Assembly (NCBI RefSeq): GCF_965641715.1
Contig: NZ_OZ282453.1
Source of the DNA: Escherichia coli
GTDB taxonomy: Bacteria; Pseudomonadota; Gammaproteobacteria; Enterobacterales; Enterobacteriaceae
DNA: 64,000 nucleotides
Strand: one strand, 5' to 3'
Shown here: positions 30,676-48,786 of the stretch, piece by piece
Layout: each line of letters opens with the position of its first letter
How positions within the stretch are numbered: the first letter of the stretch is position 1
The notes under the pieces: model-generated
The model's input: only the letters and a program-made list of their open reading frames with translations
Databases searched by the model: none
Told to the model about the DNA's origin: nothing
Translations under genes and position numbers: made by a program

Positions 30676-30709
30676 AAAACCGCTAATGGTCAGATTAGCG
30701 GTTATTTTG
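30676..30709. terminator. Bidirectional intrinsic terminator between gpU and the invertase gene
   Basis: aaaaaccgctaatggtcagattagcggttattttgtttt: a 9-bp perfect stem (accgctaat/attagcggt) flanked by A-run and T-run, between convergent genes. Confidence 0.7.
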
Positions 30710-31307
30710 TTTTCTGACTCTTCTCTATTGCTCCGCTTGATTCTCCTGCGGGGTGGTAACGATAAATCGTCGATGTACCAATGCCGTAAATTATTGCCAG
30801 TTGTTTTCTGTCGTGACCGTTTTTAATCAGCCTTGCTATTTGCTCATGCTGTTCTTTTGTCAGCTTCGGGCGACGTCCGCCTGTGCGCCCCCGTGCGCGC
30901 GCTGCTGCCAGTCCGGCCAGTGTACGTTCAACAATTAATTCACGTTCCATTTCAGCCAGGGCACCCATCACGTGGAAGAAAAAACGCCCCATTGGAGAAG
31001 ATGTATCTATGCTGTCGGTCAGACTGCGAAAATTAATCCCTCGCTCCCGTAGTTCCCCGACGAGAGAAATCAGATGTTTCATGCTTCGCCCGAGGCGATC
31101 CAGTTTCCAGACAACCAGCGTGTCACCTTTTTGAAGACGCTTTAAAGCGCGTTTTAATCCCGGTCGGTCTGTCTTTGTCCCGCTTAATTTATCTTCAAAT
31201 ATTTGTTCACATCCTGCACAAACAAGAGCGTTTCGTTGCAGGTCTGTATTCTGGTCATTTGTTGATACCCTTACATAGCCAATCAGCACGCTGAATCTCC
31301 CGTCCAA
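30702..31307 (-). CDS. Serine DNA invertase (Hin/Gin/Cin/Pin family)
   Basis: IGYVRVSTNDQNTDLQRNAL...GDTLVVWKLDRLGRSMKHL...MGRFFFHVMGALAEMERELIVERT, near-identical in pattern to Hin/Gin including the catalytic Ser; C-terminal HTH. True start may lie a few codons inside the ORF. Confidence 0.9.
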   Translation of the reverse strand: MDGRFSVLIGYVRVSTNDQNTDLQRNALVCAGCEQIFEDKLSGTKTDRPGLKRALKRLQKGDTLVVWKLDRLGRSMKHLISLVGELRERGINFRSLTDSIDTSSPMGRFFFHVMGALAEMERELIVERTLAGLAAARARGRTGGRRPKLTKEQHEQIARLIKNGHDRKQLAIIYGIGTSTIYRYHPAGESSGAIEKSQKTK

Positions 31308-31342
31308 AAGCGTAAATCATGCCATGCAGGTCAGAAACGGCC

Positions 31343-31368
31343 ATTATCTAAAACCTCGGTTTACAGGA
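31343..31368. repeat. Invertase crossover site, left (gix/hix-like 26-mer)
   Basis: ttatctaaaacctcggtttacaggaa, an imperfect palindrome of the Hin/Gin site type; inverted copy at 34409..34434. Confidence 0.8.
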
Positions 31369-32374
31369 AACGGTAAACAGGGCTGGTAACGCCGTGCAAA
31401 AAAATGGCGATACTTTGTCCGGTGGGCTTACTTTTGAAAATGACTCAATCCTTGCCTGGATTCGAAATACTGACTGGGCGAAGATTGGATTTAAAAATGA
31501 TGCCGATGGTGACACTGATTCATACATGTGGTTTGAGACAGGCGACAACGGCAATGAATATTTCAAATGGAGAAGCAAACAAAGCACCACAACAAAAGAC
31601 CTGATGAATCTTAAATGGGATGCTTTGTATGTTCTTGTTAAAGCTCTTTTCAGCAGTGAAGTAAAAATATCGACAGTCAATGCACTGAGGATATTTAATT
31701 CATCTTTTGGTGCCATTTTTCGCCGTTCTGAAGAATGCCTGCATATCATCCCTACACGAGAGAATGAGGGGGAAAATGGTAATATAGGGCCACTACGTCC
31801 CTTTACGCTTAATCTCAGAACTGGCCGCATAACTATGGGGCATGGTCTGGATGTTACAGGAGATATAACAACTAACGCCTGGGTGTATGCAAACAGGTTT
31901 GCTATTAATAGTGGCTCAACCTCATGGATTGATATGCGAAACCAGAATGTCATTTTTGGTAGAAACGCAGTATCAACAAGTTCTGCGCAGGCTTTGTTAA
32001 GACAAGACCATGCAGAACGCAAATTTTTTGTCGGTGGACTTGGTAACTACCAGTTTGGTTTTTACATGATTAATAACTCAAGGACAGCCAATGGCACCGA
32101 TGGTCAGGCGTACATGGACAATAACGGTAACTGGCTTTGTGGCTCGCAAGTTATTCCTGGCAACTATGGCAATTTTGATTCCAGATATGTGAGAGATGTT
32201 CGCCTGGGTACGCGAGTTGTTCAATTGATGGCGCGTGGTGGTCGTTATGAAAAAGCCGGACACGCAATTACCGGATTAAGAATCATTGGTGAAGTAGATG
32301 GCGATGATGAAGCCATCTTCAGGCCAATACAAAAATACATCAATGGCACATGGTATAACGTCGCACAGGTGTAA
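31369..32374 (+). CDS. Alternative tail-fibre C-terminal cassette (silent in this orientation)
   Basis: Frame open from the crossover site; encodes ETVNRAGNAVQKNGD..., parallel to the H segment after its own site, and ends ...INGTWYNVAQV like the expressed fibre. No promoter or N-terminus of its own. Confidence 0.75.
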
Positions 32375-32905
32375 ATGATGCAGCATTTAAAAAATATTAA
32401 GTCTGGAAATCCTAAAACGAAAGAACAATATCAGCTAACAAAGAATTTTGATGTTATCTGGTTATGGTCCGAAGACGATAAAAACTGGTATGAGGAAGTG
32501 AAAAACTTTCAGCCAGACACAATAAAGATTGTTTACGATGCAAATAATATTATTGTCGCCATCACTAAAGATGCCTCCACGCTTAACCCTGAAGGTTTTA
32601 GCGTCGTTGAGGTTCCTGATATTACAGCCAACCGCCGCGCTGATGATTCAGGAAAGTGGATGTTTAAGGATGGAGCTGTAGTTAAACGGATTTATACGGC
32701 AGACGAACAGCAACAACAAGGCGAATCACAAAAGGCCGCATTGCTTTCCGAAGCTGAATCAGTCATCCAGCCGCTGGAACGCGCTGTCAGGCTGAATATG
32801 GCAACAGACGAGGAACGCACACGACTGGAAGCATGGGAACGCTACAGTGTTCTGGTCAGCCGTGTGGATACGGCAAATCCTGAATGGCCACAAAAGCCTG
32901 AATAA
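32375..32905 (+). CDS. Tail-fibre assembly chaperone (partner of the silent cassette)
   Basis: 176 aa, [26 protein letters not shown]...; clear paralog of the oppositely oriented 177-aa ORF. Confidence 0.8.
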
Positions 32906-32933
32906 AAATTAAGGCCCGCGATCGGGCCTTGTC

Positions 32934-33467
32934 TCATTCAGGTTGTTCGGGAAATGTTACTGGCAGGCTGGAGGTGTCTGTAGATTCGACTTTCTGCGCA
33001 TAGAGCATCCACTCGGTTAATTTTTGTTTATTCTCGTCGGAAATGATGCCCAGCCGTAGCTGTGAGTCCCATAGCTGGGTTTTATCCCTAACGAGCTGTA
33101 GCAGGCTTTGCTTTTCATTTTCCGCCTGCTGCCTCTGCTCTTCCTCGGTATAAGTTCGCTTTACCACTACGCCATCTTTGAACATCCATTTACCAGAAAT
33201 ATCAGCCCGGCGATTTGCTGTAATATCAGGAACCTCAACGACGCTTGCGCCTTCTGGATTAATTGCTGAAACATCCTTTTCAATACAAATAATAACGTTG
33301 TTGTGGTCATAGACCATTTTCAACGTATCAGGCTGAAAGTTCTTTTGTTCCTCATACCAGTTTTTCCCATCCTCTGTATAAAGCCATTTGATGTTAAATT
33401 GTTTCGTTAGCTGGTATTGCTCTTTTGTTTTAGGGTTGCCAGCAGTAATATTTTTTAAGTGCATCAT
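32934..33467 (-). CDS. Tail-fibre assembly chaperone (partner of the expressed fibre)
   Basis: 177 aa, [25 protein letters not shown]...; directly downstream of H on the same strand. Confidence 0.8.
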
Positions 33468-33469
33468 AA

Positions 33470-35698
33470 TTAAATACTCCCCGCGTTATACCACGTCCCA
33501 TTAATGCAATACTGAATTGGCCTTGCCTGAGTTGTATCAATTAATTCATCACGGTTTCCGTTAACTGAACCCGTAACGACATAACCTGACCTGTCAGACC
33601 AGCCGGGACCATTCCATGTCTGAACAGATGACAGACCGCCAAGGCGAATACCTGTAATAAACCTTGAGTTACATTCTGCCTGCGTGTATGCACCAACATC
33701 TCCCGCAGAGGGTTTGCGGGTCGTGGTGTAAAACTCTGACCAGTTAGCCTCAAATCCATAACCATCACGCGCTGAACGATAAAAAATACCGCCGTTCCTG
33801 TAATTCACGCGGAACTGTACAGCAGGGCAGCTCCCCGTATTCATATTGAAGTGGAGGATTAATGTCGATGCACCGCTGATATCTGCATCATAAACACCGC
33901 TATTCCAGTTCCAGCCAACAGCTTTATCATTTGCAACCCTGCTTCCTGTTTGCCCTAAAGCAAATGCAGGCTGCTGGTTTTTCGTGTTGTAGTCTCTTCG
34001 CCAGCCAGGAGCATAAGCATCACCATGATTAATATAAGTGAATTGAGCGTTAGAGGTGCCGCCTCCGGTGGAAGTGCTTGGTGTTGTTACACGGATGGTC
34101 ATGGCACCTTTATTACCCATAACCTCAATAACGCAACCTGCAAGATGAATAGTTCCACAGCCAGTATCGGTAATAATTTTATTATTGCCGTATGACCATG
34201 AACATTTGCACATCCAGTATGGGTGATTGAATGCCCCTTGAGAATCCAGCCATTCAATCAATTGTGCCGTTGTCCAGTTCCCTGCCCCTGTACTAATAGC
34301 ACTGTGAAAAGCGCGACATGCACCAATATTTTTTGTGAAGGTATCTTTTCCTGGAATATCTGCGCCGTTCTGGTTTTTCTGTAATGCGCCAGAAGCCTGA
34401 TTTACCGTTTCTTGTAAACCGAGGTATTCGATAACGGCAGCAACGGTCGATTTCGCAAGAATATCCCGCCCGACTTTTGTCAGGGTTGCCAGGCTGGCGA
34501 CATCATTCCCCGTAAAATACGGAAACCTGTCTGCCGCAGTAGCAAGCCCGGCCAGCGCCGTCAGGGTGGCATCTTTCGGTTGCTTACCCGCAAGCGCGTT
34601 AGTCATGGTGGTCGCAAAATTCGGGTCGTTTCCCAGCGCCGCCGCTAACTCGTTCAGCGTATTCAGTGCGTCAGGTGACGAATCTACAAGGGCGGCAATC
34701 GCAGCCATAACGAAAGCCGTGCTTGCGATTTGGGTATTATTCGTTCCCTGTCGCGCAGTTGGCGTTGTTGGCGTTCCGGTCAGCGCAGGACTGTTTAAGG
34801 GCGCTTTCTTGTTCGTTTCATCCATTACCGCCTTAACCGCTTTCGATGTCGCGGCCAGTGTTTCAGACGTGCTGTTGGTGGCACTACTGAGCTGGACTAT
34901 CCCTTTTTGTGCCGTCGTGGCGTCCTGAGCGGTATATTTTGCGTTAGCAAGGTCATACGCGGCCTTTACTGCTTTCGGCGTTGCAGCCTGCGTTTCAGAC
35001 GTGCTGTTGGTGGCGCTACTGAGCTGAACTATCCCTTTTCGCGCAGTGGTAGCGTCCTGTGCGGTGTATTTGCCATTAGCCAGGTCATATGCCGCCTTAA
35101 CAGCCTTTGGCGTTGCCGCAAGCGTTTCAGACGTGCTGTTAGTGGCGCTGCTAAGTTGAACAAAGCCTTTTGCGGTCAGCGAGGCGTCCGGGTGACGTCG
35201 TGAGTGTTCATGCTCTTTCAGTTTGTCATCCACGTAATCCACTGTGGCCATTACCATGGTGTTATCCACGGTAAGCGCCACGGTGGCAGTGCTGGATACG
35301 GTCAGAATGGTGCGAAATGTTTGTGCACGTCCTGACCCTTCGGCAACGGTTGGCTTGTAACTTTCGGCAGTATTGCCTACTGCGATTAAATCGCCGTGCT
35401 CATCAAACACACCAATTTCCCGGATCCAGAATCCGCCCGTTTCTGGAGGAATAACCAGCTCCGCAATAATGCGGTTCTGATGTGTTGCGTCCAGGATGAC
35501 GCGATTAACAGTGTGTCGCCACACCTCATGCACCAGACGGGTCTGCTTACTGTCTGGTGTGGGCAACGTGCCGCCACCGTCGCCCACGGCCATATGAGTC
35601 AGGCGGACAGGCTTACCATCTGGCGCGGCTGCCTGAGCTAATTTTTTTGCACCCGTATCGGTGATAACGGTTTTAAATTTTCGTGTTGTGGTACTCAT
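33470..35698 (-). CDS. H: Tail fibre protein gpH (constant N-terminus plus currently selected variable C-terminus)
   Basis: 742 aa; conserved phage-fibre N-terminus, three tandem 43-aa repeats, crossover site near codon 421, C-terminus ...[12 protein letters not shown]. Confidence 0.85.
34409..34434. repeat. Invertase crossover site, right (gix/hix-like 26-mer, inside gene H)
   Basis: ttcttgtaaaccgaggtattcgataa, the inverted partner of the left site. Confidence 0.8.
34906..35290. repeat. Three tandem ~129-bp repeats inside the tail-fibre gene
   Basis: The DNA repeats encode [43 protein letters not shown] three times with minor variation. Confidence 0.7.
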
Positions 35699-36231: not shown

Positions 36232-37120
36232 TGCGCCCACCTTCGCTGATGGTGAATGACTCACAGCGCGCCGCCTGTATGTCGCTGATGGCCAGATTCT
36301 GTGTGGGTTCGATTATCTCCACGCGTTGCACACCGTGCACATGCAGTGCGGCAGCAATGGCGGACAACGCCACGTCCTGACCGATAAGCCCCTGCTCAGC
36401 CAGCCACTTCCTGAACGACGATTCAGCCGCCGCCAGAATAGGTTCGGATTCCGGGCCGGGGTAAAAGTACAGTTTTGCATTCAGCCGCCATGTCACGATT
36501 CTGGCACTCTGTACGGTCAGGCGGTCGGCCACCGGGCGGGTATCCTCTGCATTCAGAACGGCGCGAACGGTATTAAGCAACGCCTCCGTTGCTGTGCCGT
36601 CGCCCTCAGTGGACAGGATGGAAACCGTCACGTTGGCCGGAGACGGGCTGATGGCCCGCGCATCGCGCACCAGACCGCTGGCGCTGCGTGCAAAATACTC
36701 GTATGCGCCTGACGGGCCAGCAACACTCAGACCATCATACGCCCGTTGCGCCCGCAGTCTCAGCGAGGTGTCGCTCTCCATCACCGCGTCGGTGGTATCC
36801 GTTGCCGGAGTGATAACCAGGCGCTTTGTGTTCATATTGCCCGCGAGGTTGTCCAGGTCTGTTCCGGTGCTGTGGCTCAACATGCAGGCGCGTGCGCCCT
36901 CGTTAACCCGCTGGCGTAACAGCATTTCACGAAACGACATGGTTTGAGCGATAACGTTCAGGGGTTCCGATTCCAGCTCCAGCGCGGCGGAGACGGCTTC
37001 ACGCTGTTCGGCGGGATAAGCCGCAATCATCATGGCCTTTGTGTCAGCCAGAATTGCTTCAAAGTCAGGCTCCGCGATGATGGCGGGTTCCGGTAACTGG
37101 GAAAGGTCAACGGCAGGCAT
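36224..37120 (-). CDS. J: Baseplate wedge protein gpJ
   Basis: 298 aa, size and position of P2 gpJ. Confidence 0.8.
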   Translation of the reverse strand: MPAVDLSQLPEPAIIAEPDFEAILADTKAMMIAAYPAEQREAVSAALELESEPLNVIAQTMSFREMLLRQRVNEGARACMLSHSTGTDLDNLAGNMNTKRLVITPATDTTDAVMESDTSLRLRAQRAYDGLSVAGPSGAYEYFARSASGLVRDARAISPSPANVTVSILSTEGDGTATEALLNTVRAVLNAEDTRPVADRLTVQSARIVTWRLNAKLYFYPGPESEPILAAAESSFRKWLAEQGLIGQDVALSAIAAALHVHGVQRVEIIEPTQNLAISDIQAARCESFTISEGGRNE

Positions 37121-37123
37121 GAT

Positions 37124-37474
37124 TTACTCCCTCAGCGTGATGGTTAATTCAACATTCTGCATGGTCTGCATGACAGTACCCGACAGCGTCACCCCGGCGC
37201 GGCCTCCTGCTTTCCAGACAACGTCGATGGCATCCAGGGCAATGCGGGGTTCCCATCGCGTCAGTGCAATCACGGCAGCACTCATGCATTGCAGACGCGT
37301 GGTGTTATTCATGGGTTCGTCAATTAAATCAGGCACAAGGCTGCCATATTCCCGTCGCATAACCCGGCTTGCCAGCGGGGTGATCAGGATGTCCCTGACT
37401 GACTGTTTCAGGTGCTCCATATCGTTCAGGTTTCCCGTCCCGTCCGGGTTCATTCCTGTGTAGCGGGTTGTCAC
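37124..37474 (-). CDS. W: Baseplate protein gpW
   Basis: 116 aa, between V and J as in P2. Confidence 0.8.
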   Translation of the reverse strand: MTTRYTGMNPDGTGNLNDMEHLKQSVRDILITPLASRVMRREYGSLVPDLIDEPMNNTTRLQCMSAAVIALTRWEPRIALDAIDVVWKAGGRAGVTLSGTVMQTMQNVELTITLRE

Positions 37475-38052
37475 TGCGGGCCTCCTGTCGAATCGCTGCC
37501 ACCTTTAACGCCACCGTGTTTATGCGTATGCACTGTGATGCCGTTTGAGGTGAAATCGCCGCCGCTGTGCGTGATATTGCCGCTCATCTTTCCCCCTTTT
37601 GTGACGTCAAGCGTCGCTGTTCTCAGAAGGTCTGTGCATTCCACGACAGGCGTGTCCAGTGTCACACTGACGGATGCCTGCAGGGTGGCCGTTTTCATGC
37701 CGCTGGCGCTCAGTGCGCCTGCGTCTGCGTCGTAGCGGAACACCGCGCCATCCGGCGCGCTGACCACGATTTCTTTCAGGCTTTTGCCTGGGGCCGGAAT
37801 GGCATCACTCCACAGGCTGCCAATTATCATGGCGGTTTCCGGGTTGCCGCCAATGCAGGCAATGACCACCTGTTCGCCTGGTGATGGCGGCAGCCACACA
37901 TTGAAGGCTCCCGCGCGCGTGGTGTTCCAGCGCAACCAGCCTGTTTCCAGTTCGCCGCTGCGAACGCGCACGCGCCAGGACTTCTCATCAACTTCAGAGA
38001 TGATCCCGGTGCGGATGATATTGCTCAGTAGCCGCATGAGTTCTGCGCTCAC
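37471..38052 (-). CDS. V: Baseplate spike/hub protein gpV
   Basis: 193 aa with a Gly-rich C-terminal tip (HTHKHGGVKGGSDSTGGP); syntenic. Confidence 0.8.
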   Translation of the reverse strand: MSAELMRLLSNIIRTGIISEVDEKSWRVRVRSGELETGWLRWNTTRAGAFNVWLPPSPGEQVVIACIGGNPETAMIIGSLWSDAIPAPGKSLKEIVVSAPDGAVFRYDADAGALSASGMKTATLQASVSVTLDTPVVECTDLLRTATLDVTKGGKMSGNITHSGGDFTSNGITVHTHKHGGVKGGSDSTGGPQ

Positions 38053-38693
38053 CGTACAGCCTCCGCAATCCGGCCCAGCACCGTGTTATAAATCAGGCGC
38101 TCATCTGCCTGGCTGATACCCAGCAGCTCACGTACCGGGTAATCGGTGAAAATGCCCGGCGCAACCTGATCGCGCTCACCGAACTGATGAACGCGTGCAA
38201 TACGTGCGGCCACGCCGCTGTAACCCACCGTCACACCGGAAGCATCTGCACGGGCTTTCAGGTAGCGGGCGGTGCGCAGTTTTACGAACATGGGGACGCG
38301 CCTGGTGCTGTCCTGGTTGATGCGCCGGGTGCGTATTTCCAGAAAGCGGTCGATGTCATCCCGGTAAAACGTGCGGATGCTGTTTTTATCCTCATCCCAC
38401 CCGGTGATGGTTCGCCCGTATTTCCCCGTGTCGTGATGCCAGTTTTTCAGCGTGCGTGCTTCGTTATTCCAGATAAAGCGAATGCGCTCCTGTATCCGGG
38501 TTACGCGGCGTCTGCGTGGTGTCCATGCGGTCCCGTCCGGCGCTTTCTGTGACCGGATGCGCGCCTGCTGGGCGCGGCGTAAATCCTGTGCCAGCTTTCT
38601 GGCGATGTTATTGATGGCCTGCTGATTCAGGCTGTCGCGGATGGCCTCAAAGGTTTCATCCACGCGGGTGAATGCCTTATCCATCGCTTTCAC
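38049..38693 (-). CDS. Tail completion / virion morphogenesis protein (gpS-like)
   Basis: 214 aa with an ARIARVHQFG segment typical of the gpS morphogenesis family; longer than P2 gpS. Confidence 0.7.
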   Translation of the reverse strand: MKAMDKAFTRVDETFEAIRDSLNQQAINNIARKLAQDLRRAQQARIRSQKAPDGTAWTPRRRRVTRIQERIRFIWNNEARTLKNWHHDTGKYGRTITGWDEDKNSIRTFYRDDIDRFLEIRTRRINQDSTRRVPMFVKLRTARYLKARADASGVTVGYSGVAARIARVHQFGERDQVAPGIFTDYPVRELLGISQADERLIYNTVLGRIAEAVR

Positions 38694-39144
38694 CCCACGT
38701 CACATCCTGGAATACATGCGACCAGTCGCCTTCGGAGGAGGGCAGGCGGGGTTTTGGCTCCGGCAGGTGTTCTGCCTGCGGTGTCCCCTGACTGTTGCGC
38801 GTGATGCGAACGCGTTCCCGCAGGGGGAGCGTAAACAGGAGATCGGCGCTGTCATCGTCATTGATAACGGCGGAAAATTTGATGTCCTGATTACACTCCG
38901 GATTAAGCAACAACTGTGGCTGATTTTCGGATAACCACGCCAGCAGCGGCAGCGTGAGGTCGTCCAGCTCTCCGGCGTAATCCATGACAAACATCACCAT
39001 CTGATAGCGGTAAACAAACGAGGGCGTTTCTCCGGTCGTTTCAATGTTGCCGCTCTCCACGAAAATGGTGAATTTTTCCGGGTTGGCCTGACACCATCGG
39101 CATGAACGGGTCATGGCTTCACGCAGGGAATCAGTTTTCAGCAT
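38677..39144 (-). CDS. Tail completion protein gpR-like
   Basis: 155 aa, syntenic between the lysis genes and gpS. Confidence 0.7.
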   Translation of the reverse strand: MLKTDSLREAMTRSCRWCQANPEKFTIFVESGNIETTGETPSFVYRYQMVMFVMDYAGELDDLTLPLLAWLSENQPQLLLNPECNQDIKFSAVINDDDSADLLFTLPLRERVRITRNSQGTPQAEHLPEPKPRLPSSEGDWSHVFQDVTWGESDG

Positions 39145-39184
39145 GGTTGTTGTCCTCGTTATTCACTTGTTGCAGTTCATGAGG

Positions 39185-39730
39185 TTACAGGGCTACACGT
39201 TCTTTCATCCAGCCATAGACAAACGACTCGTTAGCCTCGCGTTTCTCTGCCAGCTCCAGATAGCGTTCGCCCTGCGTACAGTTCATTGCAGACAACATCA
39301 CCATCTCGCCGTCCCGACCGCGTTTTTCCAGATATGCACGCAATGCGTTAATCGTGCGTGGGCCAGTGCGTCCGTCCGTGTCCATATCGGGATACAGTTT
39401 CCCGCCCTGATTGAATACGTTCAGCCAGCGCTGAAGCATTCTGGTTGCCACAGACGGCCCCATATTTACTCCGGTGTCACACAGTTCTGCGGCAATATCC
39501 GGGGACAGCTTCGCTATCTGATCAAAACGCGGTCCGTACCAGTAATCAGCTTCAAGGATTTCCAGTGCCTGTCCGCGAGTTAAATCACGCATATCGCCAC
39601 GGTATCCGTGCGCCCGTGCCACCTTTTCAGTGATGCCCCATTTTGTCGGACCGCCTCTGTCATCCGGGTGATTGACGTAGCCGCCTTCTTTGCCAAGAAC
39701 GACATCAAAAATTTCGTCTTTCGATTTCAT
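39185..39730 (-). CDS. Endolysin, GH108-type muramidase with C-terminal peptidoglycan-binding domain
   Basis: N-terminal EGGYVNHPDDRGGPTKWGIT as in the GH108 lysozyme family; sits in the P2 gene K position. Confidence 0.75.
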   Translation of the reverse strand: MKSKDEIFDVVLGKEGGYVNHPDDRGGPTKWGITEKVARAHGYRGDMRDLTRGQALEILEADYWYGPRFDQIAKLSPDIAAELCDTGVNMGPSVATRMLQRWLNVFNQGGKLYPDMDTDGRTGPRTINALRAYLEKRGRDGEMVMLSAMNCTQGERYLELAEKREANESFVYGWMKERVAL

Positions 39731-39784
39731 TTCGTCACCTCTGTGAATGATTTTTATGGTGATTACCGGCTTTAAGCCTGCGAC

Positions 39785-40111
39785 TTATTCATCTCCCTTT
39801 TGGGTTATGCGGTTAAAGGCGGCAATGATCTTGTCGCGTGCTTTTTCTGCGCCCATAAAACCGATAGATGCGCCGAAAAACGTCACGGCATCTTCAGGAA
39901 CTCCGAAGAAGCGCAACGACCCGGCCACGGCCATGGCAAGAACGCCGCACGCCAGCGATCCCGTTACGGTCTGAACCAGCGTTCGTCCGTCATAAAGACT
40001 CATCAGCGCGGAAATGCTGACTGCCGCGCCTGCTGCATACACCGTTGGCAGGTGGTCAAAGAGCCACGCAATAACCTGCTCTGTGATCCCTGTTTGAATA
40101 GTGCTCACTAC
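39785..40111 (-). CDS. Putative holin
   Basis: ~108-aa product with two or three TM helices between gpX and the endolysin. Proposed GTG start overlaps the gpX stop (TAGTG); the track's 180-aa ORF overextends upstream in another register. Confidence 0.6.
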   Translation of the reverse strand, partial: VVSTIQTGITEQVIAWLFDHLPTVYAAGAAVSISALMSLYDGRTLVQTVTGSLACGVLAMAVAGSLRFFGVPEDAVTFFGASIGFMGAEKARDKIIAAFNRITQKGDE

Positions 40112-40317
40112 TACTCCCCCCACAACTGAATCATTTCTCGTTTCTTCTTCTCCGGCTCCGGCATCTCCACGTCCTGCCCGGGGTCCAGAAATACCTGCTG
40201 ACAGAGTCCGGGGTTGGCATCCAGCACCTTTTCGGTGACGCCCTGCGTCGTGCCGTAGTACCGGAAACAGAGCGAATCCACGGTGTCGCCTTCCAGTGCC
40301 TTCACTTTCATCAGCAC
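40111..40317 (-). CDS. X: Tail protein gpX
   Basis: 68 aa, MLMKVKALEGDTVDSLCFRYYGTTQGVTEKVLDANPGL..., closely parallel to P2 gpX. Confidence 0.85.
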   Translation of the reverse strand: MLMKVKALEGDTVDSLCFRYYGTTQGVTEKVLDANPGLCQQVFLDPGQDVEMPEPEKKKREMIQLWGE

Positions 40318-40814
40318 AACTCCGCAAAGATTCGCGGTCGTCCCAGAATGTCAGAGATGGCCCAGCTCACATCGCGCCACAAATCCGATGTCTGTATATC
40401 CAGTGCGTCCGCCCGGCGGTCGCCCTTATCCGTTGTGTCCGCATCGCGGTAACGCTCCAGAATCAGGGCGCGTGTGGCGGTATAAACGGCATTGCGCCAG
40501 TGCCAGAGATTGACGCTTTCTCCGTTAATTACGGGTGCCGGAACATCGGCCAGCGTCTGGTGGCCAGCCGCCTGCTGTTCCTGCTGCCACGCTTCCAGCT
40601 CGCGGGTAACGTGTGCCACGGCCCCGGTGGCGGTATGCAGCAGGCGGGAGGTGGTCACACGGCCCGGCAGTCGTATCGCCAGACGCAGCTCACGCAGCAC
40701 AATATCCGGCCAGAATGCGCCCGCTGAAATACGGGTATCACCATCATCGGTATCGGTGATGTCGTCCTCTGCGGGGCCGGGGTTGGTTCTGGCAACCATA
40801 CTCATGGGGTTCAC
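40311..40814 (-). CDS. L: Head completion protein gpL
   Basis: 167 aa, syntenic between M and X. Confidence 0.8.
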   Translation of the reverse strand: MNPMSMVARTNPGPAEDDITDTDDGDTRISAGAFWPDIVLRELRLAIRLPGRVTTSRLLHTATGAVAHVTRELEAWQQEQQAAGHQTLADVPAPVINGESVNLWHWRNAVYTATRALILERYRDADTTDKGDRRADALDIQTSDLWRDVSWAISDILGRPRIFAELC

Positions 40815-40906
40815 TCCTGAAAAAATCGGGCGGTGGGTGCGCGGTGTAAACGGTCACGGAGTCAAACCGGAACACCGTGCACGCCGCCCGCTGACGGGGT
40901 CAGTCG

Positions 40907-41707
40907 TTAAACGCGCTTCGCCTTCTGCGTCGCGGTGGTTTTTCGTGTTGCAGGCTTCCGCGTTGTCTTTTTACTTTTGCTGCTTTCGTCCTGCGCCTGC
41001 TGTGCGCTGGCGTCATCTGGGGCGGCTGCGGAATCGGCTTTTTTCAGGGCGCGGGAAAGGGTTGCAATCTCGCGTTTCACACCTGCGTTCGGGTTCAGGT
41101 GCATCGCTTCGCGCAGCAGCTTCAGTGACAGGGCCATGCTGTCCGCATCGCTCAGGCCACGGCGGGCAAAGGCGCACGCCTTGCATAATTTGGCGCGTAC
41201 TTCGTCCGGCATATCCTGGTCGGTGACAATCTCCCGGAGGGTGTCCAGTGGTTCGATAAAGGCGGACAAATCCGCGTCGGCATCCGTCCCGGCCTGCGTC
41301 AGTACCGGGTTGCAGATTTCTTCGGTCAGCACTGTGGCAGCAGTACGGCCAAAGTTATCCGGCATGATGAGGTTGTGACGGACCACATACGCACCAATAC
41401 GCAATGCCAGCGGAAGATCGCCACAGTCAATCGCCCACACCATCAGCGTGGCAATCACCTCATCCTGCTGCCCGCCGTCAGCCTCCAGCGTTCCTTCAAT
41501 CCAGCCAGAAAAGTCCGGTAACAACTCTTTTTTGATGGCGGCTTTGGCGCTTCTGGCCTGTACGCCCTTAAGTCGGGCCTGTGCCAGACGCAGACGATAC
41601 AGCACCTCTTCATGCGCGGTACGTGCGGCGTGATCCACGCCTTCATTCGCCCGGCCTGCGCGCTGCGCCATCACGTTCTGCCAGTGTTGCTGTGCAGGGG
41701 TAATCAT
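40907..41707 (-). CDS. M: Terminase small/endonuclease subunit gpM
   Basis: 266 aa with a basic C-terminal tail; between capsid and head-completion genes. Confidence 0.8.
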   Translation of the reverse strand: MITPAQQHWQNVMAQRAGRANEGVDHAARTAHEEVLYRLRLAQARLKGVQARSAKAAIKKELLPDFSGWIEGTLEADGGQQDEVIATLMVWAIDCGDLPLALRIGAYVVRHNLIMPDNFGRTAATVLTEEICNPVLTQAGTDADADLSAFIEPLDTLREIVTDQDMPDEVRAKLCKACAFARRGLSDADSMALSLKLLREAMHLNPNAGVKREIATLSRALKKADSAAAPDDASAQQAQDESSKSKKTTRKPATRKTTATQKAKRV

Positions 41708-41752
41708 TCTTTCTCTCCGTTACAGGCGGGCATGATGCCCGCCGTGAGTTGA

Positions 41753-42805
41753 TTAGCTGTCGGCGAACTTCAGGCCAGTGACCATCGCGCACTTGCCATA
41801 GTCTTCAACGACATAAGCGTCATTGATGGACTGGTAAGTGGCGATGCGGTTGTATTCCGGCTCGTCTTTCATCAGGCGACGCATTGAGCCTCTCTGCCAG
41901 TAAATTGACAGGTTGTTGAATGAGGTAATCAGCATCGTTGCATCCGGGAAGAACGGCGCAAGGAATACATCCAGCCCGCCAATGGTGCGCGATGACAGGA
42001 TGAGCTGTCCGGCGAGTAATTCCGCATTGGGATTCTGGCCGCTGATGCTGTTCAGAACGGGCAGACGCAGCGAGTTAAACAGGTTGCGCCCCATAATCAC
42101 CACGAGGTCGTCTGCTTCCTTGTGCCATTCATCCAGCAGGGATGAGCGCGCGTCCTGTACGAGTGCATCAGCGTTCGCATACTTACCCGCGTGCGCCACG
42201 GTGTTGTCCATGTTGCGGGAAGTCAGCGTCACGTCATTCATTACGCGTTCACTGGCATCGGTTCTGATGTGCTCCAGCCAGCCCACGTTAACGTCCTGAA
42301 GCAGCTTGTTGGTGCTGAAATTGGATTTTTCCGCGTGTGATGTGCCGTTAAAGCCGATCATGATGCGGTCAAGCGCCACCTGCCGGGCAATCTGTGTGCT
42401 GATGCGCGACTGAAAATCGCTGTGAGCCGCCCAGGCATCAAGCTTCGGATACGAAATAAAGGTGTCGTAGTTCACCTGTTCACACTGGTACTGACGAGCC
42501 TTCATATCGACAGCGTTAATCGGATTACGGCGATCTGTGCCGTCATAACTGGTATTCGTGCGCGCAATCGGCCCGGTGGTGTCCAGGAGAACTTTTTCGC
42601 CTTTCTGGTCAGTTACACCGATTACGTTAATTCTTTTCGTAAATTCGGTACTTTCCTTTGAAGCGTTTTCAAAACGCTGTTGTACCGATGGATTGACGGT
42701 AAATCGCGATACCAGCGCAGAAACCGGGATATTGTTAAGCGACGCCTGCTGCGTCATGTAGCAGCCCAGCTTGTTACGGGCATTATCTGACATCACCAGA
42801 TTCAT
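41753..42805 (-). CDS. N: Major capsid protein gpN
   Basis: 350 aa, syntenic after the scaffold gene. Confidence 0.85.
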   Translation of the reverse strand: MNLVMSDNARNKLGCYMTQQASLNNIPVSALVSRFTVNPSVQQRFENASKESTEFTKRINVIGVTDQKGEKVLLDTTGPIARTNTSYDGTDRRNPINAVDMKARQYQCEQVNYDTFISYPKLDAWAAHSDFQSRISTQIARQVALDRIMIGFNGTSHAEKSNFSTNKLLQDVNVGWLEHIRTDASERVMNDVTLTSRNMDNTVAHAGKYANADALVQDARSSLLDEWHKEADDLVVIMGRNLFNSLRLPVLNSISGQNPNAELLAGQLILSSRTIGGLDVFLAPFFPDATMLITSFNNLSIYWQRGSMRRLMKDEPEYNRIATYQSINDAYVVEDYGKCAMVTGLKFADS

Positions 42806-42828
42806 AAAAATTTTGCTCCTTTGTCTTA

Positions 42829-43665
42829 TCAGAAGTCAGCCAGTTGGTCGGAGGCTGCGCCCGTTGCGGTGAACCGGTTCTGCGGATCGCCGTCCTGCGT
42901 GCGCAGTTTTTCCTTCAGTGCTGTCAGCTCTGTGGTCAGTGACGTGATTTTCTGACGGTCCTGCTTATGGCGGGCTTCCAGTGCATTAAAACGGTCGATA
43001 ATGTCGGCCTGTGACGTTGCGACGCCTTCCACCGCTTCCTGAATACGGGAAAAACTGGCGTCATCCGCTTTGCGGCCACGGCCAATAATTCCCATTACGC
43101 GGTTAAACCACTGGGTGCCTTCTTCCTGGCGTTGTTCTGCCATTTCGATGATTTCAGACTCGATGGCTTCGGAGATAAGCGGAGCCTCACCCTGGACACT
43201 GTTGAATTTCATCACTGCCTGACGTTGCTGTGCCGTGAATTTCAGACGTTCAGTGCCCAGGCTTGCCGGGGTGTCGGTCATCGCCAGCCCGACCAGATAG
43301 GCGCGCCCGTTAACGGAGAACTGCGGGTGCAGTTCGATACTGGAATAAATTTTCTTGCCGTCAGCGACAAGCTTCTTCATGCGCTCGGTCGGTTCGATTT
43401 CTGCATACAGCGCAGTACGCCCGGCCAGCGGACCTTCCGTAATGTCTTCCGTACTCAGTGCGGTGACATCGCCCATTGCGGAAAATTCGCTTGACGGGCA
43501 TGGCGAGAGATAGTGCTCAACGTTCACGCGGGCAGCGTAAACATCCGGGTCGAAGTTCTCAGCAGCTTCACGCAGATGCACCGGACTGATTTCGCGGCCA
43601 TCAACAGTTGATCCGGAGACAGCCACGCGAAACTTTTTGCGTGATGTCTTTTTTTCATTAGCCAT
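42829..43665 (-). CDS. O: Capsid scaffold protein gpO
   Basis: Start placed at MANEKKTSRKKFRVAVSG (about 278 aa); first gene of the leftward late operon, divergent from P. Confidence 0.8.
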   Translation of the reverse strand: MANEKKTSRKKFRVAVSGSTVDGREISPVHLREAAENFDPDVYAARVNVEHYLSPCPSSEFSAMGDVTALSTEDITEGPLAGRTALYAEIEPTERMKKLVADGKKIYSSIELHPQFSVNGRAYLVGLAMTDTPASLGTERLKFTAQQRQAVMKFNSVQGEAPLISEAIESEIIEMAEQRQEEGTQWFNRVMGIIGRGRKADDASFSRIQEAVEGVATSQADIIDRFNALEARHKQDRQKITSLTTELTALKEKLRTQDGDPQNRFTATGAASDQLADF

Positions 43666-43819
43666 AGTTTTTGCCCCTCTGACTGGTTCTTCAGTCATGA
43701 TGGCAAAGCGTAACAGGCTGATACAAAGGGCTTTTGTTGTAAGAAAATGGCCAGAACAGGGGGTTAAGGAGAACGGTTTCGCGCGCGGGTAATCTTCCTG
43801 TAATTACTCAGGGGGAGCA
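43666..43819. promoter_or_regulatory. Divergent late-promoter region between gpO and gpP
   Basis: 154-bp gap between the divergently transcribed head genes. No promoter motif was confirmed. Confidence 0.4.
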
Positions 43820-45571
43820 ATGATTCAGGACGCTTTTGTGCGCCAGCGTGCGCGACAACTTTACTGGCAGGGTTATCCGCCCGCTGAAATATCACGTCTG
43901 ATGGGAATAAACCCGAACACGATTTATGCGTGGAAAAAACGCGACCAGTGGGATGAAACGCCACCCGTGCAGCGTGTCACGCAGTCCATCGATGCGCGCC
44001 TCATCCAGCTTACTGAAAAACAGAATAAAACAGGCGGTGACTTTAAGGAAATAGACCTGCTGACCCGGCAGCTTAAAAAACTGCATGATGGCCAGCCGGA
44101 TGCGACGGCCACAGGAAAGAAAGGCCGGGCGAAAAAGCTTAAAAATCATTTCACGCCGGAACAGATTGCCGCACTGCGGGAAAAAATCATCAGCAGGCTG
44201 GAGTGGCATCAGCGGGGCTGGTTTGACTCCCTGACCCTTTGCAGGGAAGCCGGGATACGTAACAGGATGATCCTGAAATCCCGACAGATTGGGGCGACCT
44301 GGTATTTTGCACAGGAAGCACTGCTGATGGCGCTGCGTGACGATGTGGCGCAACCTTACCAGCGTAACCAGATTTTTTTGTCTGCGTCGCGTCGTCAGGC
44401 GTTCCAGTTTAAAAGCATTATTCAGAAGGCTGCATCTGAAGTTGATGTGGAGCTGAAAGGGGGCGATAAAATCATCCTCTCCAACGGCGCAGAGCTGCAT
44501 TTTCTCGGCACTTCTGCTGCGACGGCACAGTCCTACACAGGCAATTTTTATTTTGATGAATTTTTCTGGGTCAGTCGCTTTGCTGAACTGCGCAAGGTGG
44601 CTGGCGCTATGGCAACCCTCAGCGGGCTGCGACGCACCTACTTCTCCACGCCATCAACCGAAACGCACGAGGCATACGTCTACTGGAACGGCGACCGCTG
44701 GAACGAGAAAAAGGCCGCGCATAAACGCCAGCGTTTTTCTGTGGACTGGAAAACGCTGCATAACGGGCTTATCTGCCCCGACCGGACGTGGCGGCAAATT
44801 GTCACGCTGGAAGATGTGGTTAATCACGGCTGGAAACACACCGATATTGATGAAATTCGTGATGAAAACACCGAAGACGAGTTCCGCAATCTCTATATGT
44901 GTGAGTTTGTCCGCGAAGGGGAATCGGCATTTAACCTGAATATCCTGATTGGCTGCGGTGTTGACGGATACGACGACTGGAAAGACTGGAAACCTTTTGC
45001 TCCCCGCCCGATGGGGAATCGTCCGGTATGGATTGGGTATGACGCAAACGGCAGCAGTGGAAACGGCGACAGTGGCGCGGTGTCCGTGGTGGTTCCTCCG
45101 GCTGTTCCTGGTGGCCGTTTTCGAACGGTGGAGACGCGACGCGTTCAGGGGCTGGAGTTTGAAGAACAGGCCAGAGTCATTGAAGAGTTCACGTGTCGCT
45201 ACAACGTGGAACACATCGGCATTGATGTGACGGGCGGGAACGGGGAGGCTGTTTATCAGATAGTGAAACGGTTTTTCCCTGCCGCTATTCCGTACACCTT
45301 CACGCTGTCATCAAAACGGTCGCTGGTACTGAAAATGCTGCAAATAATGCGTGCCGGGCGGTGGGAATACGATCGCGCCGAACGCGAGCTGGTCGCGGCC
45401 TTTAACGCCGTGCGTAAGGTGAAAACACCGGGCGGCTTTATCACTTACGAAACGGACCGCGCGAGGGGGATCAGCCACGGCGACCTTGCGTGGGCAACCA
45501 TGCTTGCTGTCATTAACGAACCAATTGGCGGCGAAGGAGAAAACGAGCGTTTCACGGTTATGGAGTTCTGA
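43820..45571 (+). CDS. P: Terminase large (ATPase) subunit gpP
   Basis: 583 aa; terminase ATPase and nuclease architecture; adjacent to the portal gene. Confidence 0.88.
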   Translation: MIQDAFVRQRARQLYWQGYPPAEISRLMGINPNTIYAWKKRDQWDETPPVQRVTQSIDARLIQLTEKQNKTGGDFKEIDLLTRQLKKLHDGQPDATATGKKGRAKKLKNHFTPEQIAALREKIISRLEWHQRGWFDSLTLCREAGIRNRMILKSRQIGATWYFAQEALLMALRDDVAQPYQRNQIFLSASRRQAFQFKSIIQKAASEVDVELKGGDKIILSNGAELHFLGTSAATAQSYTGNFYFDEFFWVSRFAELRKVAGAMATLSGLRRTYFSTPSTETHEAYVYWNGDRWNEKKAAHKRQRFSVDWKTLHNGLICPDRTWRQIVTLEDVVNHGWKHTDIDEIRDENTEDEFRNLYMCEFVREGESAFNLNILIGCGVDGYDDWKDWKPFAPRPMGNRPVWIGYDANGSSGNGDSGAVSVVVPPAVPGGRFRTVETRRVQGLEFEEQARVIEEFTCRYNVEHIGIDVTGGNGEAVYQIVKRFFPAAIPYTFTLSSKRSLVLKMLQIMRAGRWEYDRAERELVAAFNAVRKVKTPGGFITYETDRARGISHGDLAWATMLAVINEPIGGEGENERFTVMEF

Positions 45572-46617
45572 TGAGCAGAAAAAATAAAAAAGTGCGCATG
45601 AGTTCACGCATTGATCTCGCTGATGCGCTCAGGAAAGAATCGTCGCTCAGTGCATTCACATTTGATGGTCCTTACCGCCTGACCGGGCATGACCTGCTGG
45701 ACAATATGTACTGTGCTGATAACGGGCGGTGGTATGAAACCCCGGTGGACTGGTACGGTCTGGCAAGAGCCGCCCGGCAAACGTCCTGGCATCAGTCTGC
45801 GCTTTACTTTAAGCGCAATGTATTGCTCGGTTGCTACATCCCGCACCCGCTGCTTTCCCGGCAGGATTTCTCGGCGCTGGCGCTGGACTGGTTTGTGTTC
45901 GGTAACGCATTCCTTGAGCTTCGGAGCAATATGCTCGGCGAACCACTTAAATTACGGCACGCACTGGCGAAATACATGCGACGCGGAAGCGATCTTGAAT
46001 CATGGTGGTATGTGCAGGATGGCAAGGACGCGTTTCAGTTTCGCCCTGGCAAAGTGTGCCACCTGATGAATCCGGACATTAACCAGGAAATTTACGGCAT
46101 GCCGGAATATCTTGGCGCATTACTCTCGGCCAGCCTGTCTCATTCGGCGGACATGTTCAGAAAACTGTACTACGACAATGGATCCCACGCCGGGTGCATC
46201 ATCTACATCGGTGCAGCGCAGGTAAACCGCGAAAGCATGGACTCCCTGAAGGAAACGCTACAGGGTGCGCGTGGTGGTGGTGCATTTAAAAACGTGCTCA
46301 TTCACGCGCCCAACGGGGGCAAAGAAGGTGTGCAAATTTTGCCGTTCCAGCAGATCACCGCAAAGGATGAGTTCATGAATGTTAAGGCGGCATCCCGTGA
46401 TGATGTGCTGGCTGCGCACCGCGTTCCGCCGCAACTGATGGGGGCGATGCCGGGCGAAAAAAGTGCGTTTGGTGATGTGGAGAAGGCAGCGCGGGTTTAC
46501 GCAATTAACGAGCTGATGCCCGTCATGGAGGCCATGAAGCATATCAATGACTGGCTTGGCGAAGAGGTGATCCGCTTTAACCCTTACGCACTGCTGGACA
46601 CCCAGCCCACATCCTGA
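45571..46617 (+). CDS. Q: Portal protein gpQ
   Basis: 348 aa, start overlaps the gpP stop; P2 Q size and position. Confidence 0.88.
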   Translation: MSRKNKKVRMSSRIDLADALRKESSLSAFTFDGPYRLTGHDLLDNMYCADNGRWYETPVDWYGLARAARQTSWHQSALYFKRNVLLGCYIPHPLLSRQDFSALALDWFVFGNAFLELRSNMLGEPLKLRHALAKYMRRGSDLESWWYVQDGKDAFQFRPGKVCHLMNPDINQEIYGMPEYLGALLSASLSHSADMFRKLYYDNGSHAGCIIYIGAAQVNRESMDSLKETLQGARGGGAFKNVLIHAPNGGKEGVQILPFQQITAKDEFMNVKAASRDDVLAAHRVPPQLMGAMPGEKSAFGDVEKAARVYAINELMPVMEAMKHINDWLGEEVIRFNPYALLDTQPTS

Positions 46618-47141
46618 CGCGCTTCGCTTGTCTGCTGCTTCGCCGGGGCATAAAAAATTTATGCCCCGACTCTCCAGCTCCTGTATCAATCAGATAATTT
46701 CACGACGTCTTCCAGCTTATCGCCATCATCGACGGTCAGGCTCTTACGCAATCCCACCGCGTTGACTGCATGTTCTTGCCGCCTCAGTGCGATTTTGACG
46801 GCCTTATCTGTCACCCCATCAAATCAAAAGCCCTCACGCCTTTTTCACGCTCAGTGTGAGAAATACAGCCATTCTGTTGTGTCGCTGCGACATCGTTCAG
46901 GGAATGCTATTTACCCCCTGAAACGCGGGCTGTTCCCCCGTCACCTGCGCGCAGAAAAAACGCGTTTTTTTGTGCACGCACGGATCCTTGACGGATCCAG
47001 TCGCCACGCGGGCCGGAAGGGTAAAAAGTTGTTCAAAAAAATTGTGCAAATTTGTGCACTATTGTGCGGTGTATAAAATGAAAATATGGCGGTGTTATTA
47101 CTGCCCAACAAGCCGTTATACTTACGTTATGGGCGTGCATA
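46618..47141. other. Non-coding region expected to contain the cos site, plus the promoter of the downstream toxin-antitoxin pair
   Basis: Placed by synteny (P2 cos lies next to Q). Contains a Q-distal hairpin ggggcataaaaaatttatgcccc and three TTGTGC direct repeats at about 47040..47068. Exact cos ends not identified. Confidence 0.4.
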
Positions 47142-47498
47142 ATGGAAATGAATATGAAAACTGTAACTGATGATGAATTTCGTGAGAACCTGAGTGAAAT
47201 TCTGGATTACCTTTCTTCCGGTGGCAGTGTCGTTATCACGGCGCAGGGAGGGAAGGATGTTGTTCTTGCTGGTTCTGATCTTAGTCCTGAAATACGGGCT
47301 GTCCTTGGCAAAACCAAAAAACTGCGGGATCAAATAAACAAAATGAAGCAACCACTCTTAATAAATGCAGTGAGAGATCTGGAAAAACGTCATCCAGCTC
47401 TTGTCGCACAGAGAAAAAAAGGATTGTCTTTTGAAGATGCAATGAAGCGTACAAGAGAAAAACATGCGGATATCATTAAAAAGCTTGAGGATAACTGA
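47142..47498 (+). CDS. Phd/YefM-family antitoxin
   Basis: N-terminal T..EFRENLSEILDYL...VVIT..GKDVVL resembles the Phd/YefM fold; stop overlaps the toxin start (ATAACTGATGG). Confidence 0.7.
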   Translation: MEMNMKTVTDDEFRENLSEILDYLSSGGSVVITAQGGKDVVLAGSDLSPEIRAVLGKTKKLRDQINKMKQPLLINAVRDLEKRHPALVAQRKKGLSFEDAMKRTREKHADIIKKLEDN

Positions 47499-47905
47499 TG
47501 GACATAGTGTTTTTGTCAAAAGAACAAGTAGAACGTATCCATGCTGAAACTTTACCCCAGAGCGGAAATGCCAATGACGGGCTACTTGAAGGTGCTTTAA
47601 ATCGCGTCAGGACACTACACTACTATGAAGGGGTTGATGATATTCATGCTCTGGCTGCTATGTATTTGATTGGTATAGCCAAGGCTCATGCCTTTCATGA
47701 TGGGAATAAACGCACAGCTTTTCAGGCTGCATCAATATTTTTAATGATGAACTCTTCCGAACTTTCAAACTCCCTGCTGCTGGTTAAATTAACGGTGTTT
47801 TCAGCAATGGGGATAGCTACCCTTGAGGAAGTTACCTTTGCTTTGAAATTGCTGTCTGATTATGGCAATGAATTAATCAGCGACTACGAAGAAGATTATA
47901 TTTAA
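47498..47905 (+). CDS. Doc-family toxin (Fic fold)
   Basis: HAFHDGNKRTAF matches the Doc/Fic core motif HxFx(D/N)GNKR; 135 aa. Confidence 0.8.
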   Translation: MDIVFLSKEQVERIHAETLPQSGNANDGLLEGALNRVRTLHYYEGVDDIHALAAMYLIGIAKAHAFHDGNKRTAFQAASIFLMMNSSELSNSLLLVKLTVFSAMGIATLEEVTFALKLLSDYGNELISDYEEDYI

Positions 47906-48071: not shown

Positions 48072-48407
48072 TCATTCATGCGTTTTTTCTTCATGGTCTG
48101 TCACTTCTCTCCTGATAACTTCATTGCACAAATCAACGCACTCATTGCAGATGTAAACAGACGGTCCGGCAATCACCTTTGTGACTTCGTACTGGGATTT
48201 ATTGCAGAAGCTGCAATAAATCGTCTCCTCACCTGAAGTCCATGTTTTGCTGGTTTCGCCAGACATCAGTTGTTTGAGGTCTTTTTCACGACGAAGAACT
48301 ATCTGGCCACATTCAGCTATTTTTTGGATGTTGACATTTTCTTCTTTCGCCAGCGCTTCCATCCGCTCAATCAGTCGCTGCGCTTTTTCTCTGTCAATGC
48401 GTTGCAT
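48072..48407 (-). CDS. Stand-alone protein carrying a ClpX-type N-terminal zinc-binding domain
   Basis: C-terminal half [38 protein letters not shown] is near-identical in pattern to the ClpX C4 zinc-binding domain; N-terminal 60 aa helical; no AAA+ module. Confidence 0.7.
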
Positions 48408-48470: not shown

Positions 48471-48782
48471 TTATTCGGGAAATAACGCCCGGATATTTCC
48501 GGCCATCTGACTGGTTATCTGTGCGGTTGATACTGGCTGTGACGCGGGGCGTTCTGTCCTGGTTTGTGTCACTGATAACGCTTCATCATCAGCCCATGCA
48601 GCCAGTCGGTAAGCCTCTGCCGGATTCATTTTCAGAAGTGCCAGCCCGGCCAGAAAAGCCACGCGTTGGCCGCTTTTGCGCGCTTCTGGTGTAAGGCTGT
48701 CCAGCCAGGCGCATGCTTCACCTTCGTTCTTGACGGCGGCGGGCTTCAGATAGAAACTTATCCGTCTGGTTGGAGTCGTCAT
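48471..48782 (-). CDS. ParR/StbB-like partition adaptor
   Basis: ~103 aa from MTTPTRRISFYLKP...EACAWLDSL...RVAFLAGLALL, parallel to plasmid R1 ParR; directly downstream of the parM-like gene. Confidence 0.65.
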   Translation of the reverse strand: MTTPTRRISFYLKPAAVKNEGEACAWLDSLTPEARKSGQRVAFLAGLALLKMNPAEAYRLAAWADDEALSVTQTRTERPASQPVSTAQITSQMAGNIRALFPE

Positions 48783-48786
48783 TGGT

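Follow-up and report, generated by a model that had tools for sequence, protein, structure and literature searches.

Apparent loss of the spanin gene pair from the lysis cassette of a Xuanwuvirus prophage in Escherichia coli

Spanins are regarded as a required third step of phage lysis in Gram-negative hosts. What, then, is to be made of a lysis cassette that holds a holin and an endolysin and no spanin genes? The question is raised by the window, a 64,000-nt stretch of the Escherichia coli contig NZ_OZ282453.1 that contains an integrated prophage of the P2 family, with its lysis cassette between the tail genes gpX and gpR. The spanin genes could have been overlooked, could lie elsewhere, could never have belonged to this cassette, or could have been lost. 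With a probability of roughly 80% we favour loss, in the following form: this is the late-operon lysis cassette of a Xuanwuvirus, its holin and GH108 muramidase are intact, and its ancestral spanin pair has gone in a single event without a substitute, which would make the outer-membrane step of lysis leaky.

The first-pass annotation had read the cassette against phage P2, whose lysis genes Y, K, lysA, lysB and lysC occupy the same slot of the O-type late operon, with X on one side and R on the other. P2 proves to be an unsuitable reference. The prophage aligns colinearly with Citrobacter phage phiSM in blocks of 88.9-97.1% identity over 21534-57954 (~96% over most of it, an invertible tail-fibre segment excepted), and 41 of the 46 annotated phiSM proteins are matched in the window, most of them at full length. 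All phiSM late proteins (among them gpD, sheath, tube, tape measure, baseplate, capsid, terminase and portal) are present at full length and 87-100% identity with a sole exception, a DUF2570 protein that has no match. P88-type phages cover 73% of a 2.3-kb query at 96-98% identity. A perfect 20-bp repeat (21531-21550 and 57944-57963) forms the putative attL/attR core, and the host flanks are the same as in E. coli RM10740. Judged by these alignments the prophage is a Xuanwuvirus (Peduoviridae) and not a P2-like Peduovirus, and what separates it from P2 is a genus-level difference. A lambda-S-type holin of this kind is standard in Xuanwuvirus, accompanied by a GH108 endolysin in the phiSM type and by a Peptidase_M15_4 endolysin in the P88/Chuche type. 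The order gpL-gpX-holin-GH108-...-gpR-gpS is shared by phiSM (Shae_phiSM, OR565851; ~96-97% nucleotide identity to the window prophage) and its E. coli equivalents (IHE3034, JNE120393), while P88 and Chuche combine the same late backbone and holin gene with a 130-aa Peptidase_M15_4 endolysin and have kept both spanins. For annotation, the lesson is to compare the cassette with P88 and phiSM rather than with P2.

The relatives show what once stood between endolysin and gpR. Next after the endolysin, in phiSM, Chuche and the intact E. coli prophages, comes a 135-aa protein with an N-terminal transmembrane domain (DUF2570); its phiSM version matches the Rz-like spanin family phrog_214 (1.1e-39). 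A 96-aa open reading frame (ORF) with the lipobox LLTGC overlaps the 135-aa frame and runs into the start of gpR; the phiSM version matches PF23793 LysC (7.8e-13) and, more distantly, LysC of P2 (28% identity, E 2e-4). By homology the two are an overlapped pair of a LysB-like i-spanin and a LysC-like o-spanin. P2 has the same architecture, with overlapped lysB/lysC (PMC6139136) and lysC running into the start of R, and its LysC is a distant homologue of the one in the window's spanin-plus relatives. Both genes are found in phiSM and Chuche and are annotated by RefSeq in the intact E. coli copies; P88 and the remaining P88-type records examined have annotated spanins too, under the names DUF2570 or Rz-like spanin.

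In the window most of this pair is gone. When phiSM is compared with 38600-40900, 99% is matched at 97.5% identity, yet phiSM spans ~500 nt more: the window is without positions 17142-17651 of OR565851 (510 nt, the LysB/LysC segment), and has 9 nt in their place together with a foreign endolysin 3' end. Beyond the 9 nt, a remnant of lysC survives that aligns with the 3' end of lysC in phiSM and Chuche (LQRLNNEDNNHAEN, followed by the stop), and P88-type phages match the window as far as 39175. The junction-spanning sequence is GCCCTGTAACCTCATGAACTGCAAC, and the stretch between the GH108 gene and gpR reads ...TAACCTCATGAACTGCAAC.... The deletion kept the full endolysin ORF, the gpR Shine-Dalgarno and the gpR ATG. 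The flanking genes are unaffected, gpX and gpR being 98.5% and 98.7% identical to their phiSM counterparts over their full length (the mechanically called gpX ORF opens at GTG 40317). On the minus strand the order is gpX, holin, endolysin, gpR, tightly packed with intergenic gaps of 2, 54 and 40 nt, the last of these running from the endolysin stop to the gpR ATG. The first-pass annotation was thus right that no LysA, LysB or LysC genes lie between gpX and gpR, where there is only the 40-nt gap and no ORF with a lipobox.

It had left open whether the spanin function was missing, encoded elsewhere or embedded, and had proposed a scan of all frames for embedded or overlapping lipoprotein ORFs. 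That scan has been run, over six frames and the whole prophage (21500-58000) with ATG, GTG and TTG starts, and locally over 38600-40400 with looser rules and CTG, ATT and ATA starts added. Across 21500-58000 there was no credible o-spanin or u-spanin but only antisense artefacts that are present in phiSM too; as a positive control, the whole-prophage scan recovered the o-spanin (LysC) of phiSM. The looser scan of 38600-40400 yielded merely in-frame pieces of the holin and no spanin frame. One extra minus-strand ORF lies within the endolysin gene (39580-39708, 42 aa), and its product is without a signal, a lipobox or a transmembrane domain. The scans led us to reject spanin frames that are embedded or overlapping and, as far as sequence tells, a spanin or disruptin elsewhere in the prophage, where the regions that phiSM does not share hold Phd/Doc, a ClpX-type zinc-finger protein, Hok and regulators. 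Of the three possibilities, "missing" is the one supported, and the absence is a real deletion rather than a miss in gene calling.

A spanin-less cassette could also have been acquired as such. The first-pass annotation inferred a module swap relative to P2, which could have imported a cassette natively without spanins or with spanins embedded or placed elsewhere. The families do differ from those of P2, as it had claimed: BLASTP gives no significant alignment of the endolysin with K (E 0.12) and no significant similarity of the holin to Y (E 17). The match to the K family that it had named as evidence to the contrary is not there. Compared with P2, then, the window has an unrelated holin and endolysin, no lysA, and no lysB/lysC. 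In addition, downstream of related GH108 genes in a lambdoid prophage and in a 48-kb plasmid record there are small unannotated ORFs in place of annotated spanins. Against a native swap, sisters that have the same holin and a 99%-identical 5' part of the endolysin gene carry lysB/lysC at this very place, a lysC stub remains in the window, and there is no embedded or distant lipobox ORF. This explanation is largely refuted and we consider it highly improbable. The swap itself survives insofar as the families differ from P2, while the absence of spanins stems from a secondary 510-nt event that left the stub behind. Taken together, the alignments indicate that spanin loss is a secondary deletion or recombination in the window's lineage, separate from the module difference between P2 and Xuanwuvirus.

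How the junction arose can be read in part from the endolysin gene. Compared with phiSM-type alleles, its first 437 nt are ~99% identical (4-5 mismatches) and its last 109 nt only 81-84% (17-21 mismatches), with the best breakpoint at 437/438 (Fisher p 1e-9 to 2e-12). The last 109 nt are instead ~94% identical to the GH108 genes of the lambdoid prophage (RM8082) and the 48-kb plasmid record (JE86_p3), which resemble the tract but are without its terminal 19 nt; the window gene ends in ...GTAGCCCTGTAACCTCATGAA. A simple internal deletion had to be modified as an explanation because the endolysin 3' tract is foreign, in favour of recombination with another GH108 gene plus an illegitimate join on the right. 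Since the last ~109 nt of the gene are of different ancestry, recombination would have made the junction: we infer that the left side is a homologous crossover within a foreign GH108 gene and the right side an illegitimate join within the 3' end of lysC. In this account one ancestral event swapped the last ~109 nt of the endolysin gene for foreign GH108 sequence and rejoined it 31 nt upstream of the gpR ATG; the endolysin came out complete, 14 codons of lysC stayed behind as a stub, and gpR kept its ribosome-binding site.

The two genes that remain are intact. The holin scores 68.9 bits against PF05106 (cut-off 23.8) and matches the holin/anti-holin family phrog_126 at 3.1e-33, while its 51.2 bits against the NCBIfam equivalog TIGR01594 fall under the 55.05 cut-off; by these scores it is a member of the lambda S family but not an equivalog. 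The class I topology calls for three transmembrane domains and a charged C-terminus; hydropathy gives strong stretches at residues 22-39 and 43-71 and a weaker third at ~74-86, and the C-terminal tail is charged, with a net charge of just +1. Its GTG start was first described as overlapping the gpX stop. The start does adjoin that stop, but there is no overlap: the GTG (40108-40106) sits two nt after the TAG (40113-40111), behind a GGGGGAG Shine-Dalgarno. The protein is 99% identical to the phiSM holin, and in RM10740, where the DNA is 100% identical to the window, it is WP_000104344.1, the same protein as in spanin-plus prophages. In Chuche (2976-3194 of the extracted locus) the P88-type holin is annotated as a 72-aa "holin/anti-holin" that begins at an internal Met of the same lambda-S-family gene, which is probably a difference in start-codon annotation and not a different gene.

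For the endolysin, a GH108-like N-terminus had been proposed from a stretch that corresponds to residues 15-34 (EGGYVNHPDDRGGPTKWGIT), and the proposal is borne out by PF05838 (1.3e-26; 93.4 bits, cut-off 21.2), with a PF09374 domain besides (88.1 bits, cut-off 24.6), both above the gathering thresholds. It matches the endolysin family phrog_315 at 2.8e-53 and is 96.7% identical to the phiSM endolysin. The closest solved structure is Sen1395 (6V3Z, 1.3e-111), with which the EGGY motif and its N-terminal catalytic Glu align (E15-G-G-Y18 in the translation). Sen1395 is a TtsA-family muramidase with demonstrated peptidoglycan-hydrolase activity (PMC6996933), and Sen1395/TtsA (PDB 6V3Z, 6V40) belong to the same two-domain family as the window enzyme, with a GH108 catalytic N-terminus that carries EGGY and a C-terminal peptidoglycan-binding domain. 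The close match to Sen1395 suggests that the window enzyme is an N-acetylmuramidase acting on peptidoglycan. At residue 167 it has Asn where Sen1395 has Asp167; in TtsA, Asn166 is the specificity-determining residue (PMC6996933), and Asn167 may bear on the preferred peptidoglycan cross-links. Asn167 is also found in the spanin-plus alleles and is therefore unrelated to the deletion.

This family relationship gives rise to another possible explanation, in which holin and muramidase have been domesticated into a non-lytic export device resembling type 10 secretion. TtsA serves in the non-lytic export of typhoid toxin (PMC6996933), and the closest structure being that of a TtsA homologue, the Asn at the TtsA N166 position and the lack of genes for outer-membrane disruption would all fit. 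The window enzyme, unlike TtsA, is encoded in a phage late operon: the cassette sits between gpX and gpR in a complete, att-flanked prophage, N167 is shared with spanin-plus alleles, and no cargo toxin or chitinase is found among the adjacent genes. Domestication of this kind is very improbable indeed.

The loss might instead have been made good. An outer-membrane disruptor of a non-spanin type that goes unrecognised (a disruptin-like cationic peptide, a membrane-active endolysin, or the spanins of a co-resident prophage acting in trans) could complete lysis. No spanin can be identified in about 13-15% of the phages that infect Gram-negative hosts, and phiKT uses a cationic peptide in place of spanins (PMC6139136; bioRxiv 10.1101/515445); the lineage is also fairly common. 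The cassette, however, has no room for an extra ORF in its three short gaps, and the regions not shared with phiSM encode toxin-antitoxin, ClpX zinc-finger and regulatory genes. The endolysin has no hydrophobic stretch (maximum KD15 0.47), no transmembrane domain and neither a cationic nor an amphipathic tail, and a signal-anchor-release or otherwise membrane-active endolysin was rejected for lack of both a hydrophobic N-terminus and a cationic tail. Comparison with the sisters likewise gives no sign of compensation, the holin being the same protein and the endolysin differing from spanin-plus alleles by ~7 conservative residues; nor did the ancestral system, as the spanin-plus sisters show, need any such factor. 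We think compensation improbable, although less so than a natively spanin-less import.

If the spanins are simply gone, lysis would proceed as follows. On induction, Ogr-dependent late transcription would bring about expression of both genes; at a programmed time the inner membrane would be made permeable by the holin, and the muramidase would escape and degrade the murein. The dedicated outer-membrane step would be absent, and release would rely on mechanical or osmotic failure of the outer membrane. The expected phenotype is the leaky Rz/Rz1-null type, with spherical cells if divalent cations stabilise the outer membrane. In shaken cultures spanins become necessary only when the outer membrane is stabilised by divalent cations at millimolar concentration (PMC6139136), and the P2 record annotates lysB and lysC as nonessential genes that affect lysis timing or regulation. 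Given the analogy with the lambda Rz/Rz1 null and the nonessential lysB/lysC of P2, the phage is expected to be viable, with conditional and delayed release. The closest parallels are lambda Rz/Rz1-null mutants and the phages that Kongari et al. 2018 (PMC6139136) list as spanin-less: they likewise have a holin and an endolysin and no identifiable gene for outer-membrane disruption, and the phenotype to be expected depends on divalent cations and shear. The phages listed there have no known spanin-bearing ancestor, in contrast to the recent, traceable loss described here, which has near-isogenic spanin-plus sisters.

The junction is not confined to the window. Among 5426 complete E. coli genomes, ~1066 carry a P88-type spanin/gpR region, 32 of these with the full GH108-lysB-lysC-gpR arrangement, and five carry the deletion junction: RM10740 (at flk/pdxB) and four pig enterotoxigenic E. 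coli (ETEC) strains (at ihfA/btuC, with a different integrase). Window and RM10740 are 100% identical over 37000-47067 and differ in the tail-fibre region, where RM10740 has IS66. RM10740, ETEC1730 and 10 further loci share one and the same junction, in two alleles one single-nucleotide polymorphism apart. In a large assembly collection, 658 index blocks contain exactly this endolysin protein, which is seen on 325 contigs (745 and 224 contigs for two spanin-plus endolysin alleles), and in all 10 contexts shown, together with similar ones collapsed into them, gpR follows the endolysin after 40 nt with the same junction. One genome holds two junction copies that are 97.8% identical. The flanks of the junction diverge by up to 3.15%, around a valley of diversity (~0) at the junction itself. 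These patterns indicate a single origin followed by wide dissemination, by recombination of the flanks, or by both. So wide a spread of the junction makes it probable that the lineage remains viable and transmissible. Separately, the ETEC1730 locus (NZ_CP122832.1, 1203-4600 of the extracted locus) has a His-Xaa-Ser (HxsABCD) radical-SAM cluster between ogr and gpD.

Several observations weigh against this picture of a living phage with a leaky final step. When IMG/VR, JGI metagenome contigs and GTDB representative genomes were scanned for exact patterns, neither the junction nor a donor of the endolysin 3' tract and the 9-nt filler came to light, and the junction is in no deposited phage genome matched, so direct evidence of virions that carry it is lacking. 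Two of the three independent contexts in complete genomes are degraded: in RM10740, IS66 sits in a tail-fibre gene and gpD is called short, and IS66 and IS100 are present in the ETEC copy. The spread could also have come from clonal host expansion or from gene conversion among co-resident P88-like prophages, which are common enough for it, and the diversity valley fits that too. The leaky outer-membrane step, finally, is extrapolated from lambda and P2 genetics.

These points can be assembled into the most serious alternative, decay of a dead prophage, in which the spanin deletion is one of several inactivating lesions and the distribution reflects vertical inheritance plus recombination among resident prophages. 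The insertions and shortened gpD calls in RM10740 and ETEC1730, the want of a phage isolate, IMG/VR contig or metagenome contig with the junction, and diversity near zero at the junction that rises in the flanks are what such decay would predict. In the window, however, comparison with phiSM shows the late genes, gpA, int, cox and the two att repeats to be intact; phiSM itself is a functional, plaque-forming temperate phage and spanin-plus (PMC6456863). The deletion is also "clean" in what it keeps (endolysin ORF, gpR Shine-Dalgarno and start), as expected under selection for virion production; the junction is known from at least two integration sites whose integrases differ, has two copies in one genome and extends to 325 contigs; and loss of the spanins by itself does not kill P2 or lambda. 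Decay is a possibility to be taken seriously, but we hold it to be unlikely.

What follows for spanins in general is more tentative. It is conceivable, and we would not put it higher, that a circulating and still-transmissible temperate coliphage lineage exists without any gene for outer-membrane disruption, beside near-isogenic spanin-plus sisters in E. coli. If true, either phages can spread in the gut without needing spanins, or there is an unrecognised route of outer-membrane disruption in E. coli, and the pair would be a natural experiment on the fitness value of spanins outside the shaker flask. The importance of spanins outside laboratory conditions is not established; the loss is recent, precisely mapped and in a tractable host, and the sisters differ essentially by a 0.5-kb spanin segment, which makes direct comparison possible in burst, timing of release and competitive fitness, with Mg2+ or without it. 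In itself the cassette is a deletion variant of a known one, otherwise an ordinary and well-annotated holin-endolysin pair, and its interest is modest. Its features are collected in the table.

Table. Features of the prophage and of its lysis region, in window coordinates
Feature	Position	Strand	Basis and remarks
Whole prophage, P88/phiSM-like Xuanwuvirus	21531-57963	.	20-bp direct repeat AAAATCCTTGTTGATGAAAA at both ends; between flk and pdxB
gpS	38049-38693	-	PF05069
gpR (tail completion)	38677-39144	-	PF06891, 1.3e-39; first gene past the cassette
lysC remnant	39131-39175	-	Last 14 codons plus stop, LQQVNNEDNNHAEN; overlaps gpR start
gpR Shine-Dalgarno, GAGGA	39153-39157	-	8 nt upstream of ATG; read directly from the sequence
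9-nt junction filler, CCTCATGAA	39176-39184	-	Alignments and BLAST map; replaces the 510-nt lysB/lysC segment
Soluble endolysin, 181 aa	39185-39730	-	PF05838 Glyco_hydro_108, 1.3e-26; PF09374 PG_binding_3, 4.3e-25; phrog_315
Recombinant 3' tract of the endolysin gene	39185-39293	-	Gene positions 438-546; ancestry unlike the rest of the gene
Holin, lambda S family, 107 aa	39785-40108	-	PF05106 Phage_holin_3_1, 5.4e-19; phrog_126
gpX (tail protein X)	40111-40311	-	PF05489, 6.9e-20; upstream neighbour of the lysis cassette
gpL	up to 40311	-	PF05926

A scan of 37900-44000 for promoters and terminators gave nothing exceeding shuffle expectation. Elsewhere in the prophage, a Hin/Gin-type serine invertase (Resolvase plus HTH_7; 30702-31307, minus strand) adjoins the segment with tail-fibre and tail-fibre-assembly genes (31340-34396), which is inverted relative to phiSM and looks like an invertible host-range switch; in RM10740 this region is broken by the IS66-family element. 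The cargo after the portal gene is unlike that of phiSM, with a Phd/YefM-Doc(Fic) toxin-antitoxin pair (47142-47905, plus strand) and a ClpX C4 zinc-finger protein (48072-48407, minus strand) replacing the phiSM "memP". By ogr (23521-23781) and within the att bounds, the region 21700-23781 (minus strand) has a Hok/Gef toxin gene (23190-23330), and the products of two further minus-strand genes there, a zinc-ribbon membrane protein (22595-22927) and a VasI/TagO-like protein associated with type VI secretion (21700-22590), are full-length matches to phiSM. Also common to phiSM is a ParM-like segregation ATPase with partner genes (48471-49746, minus strand), here in the early region of an integrated P2-family prophage.

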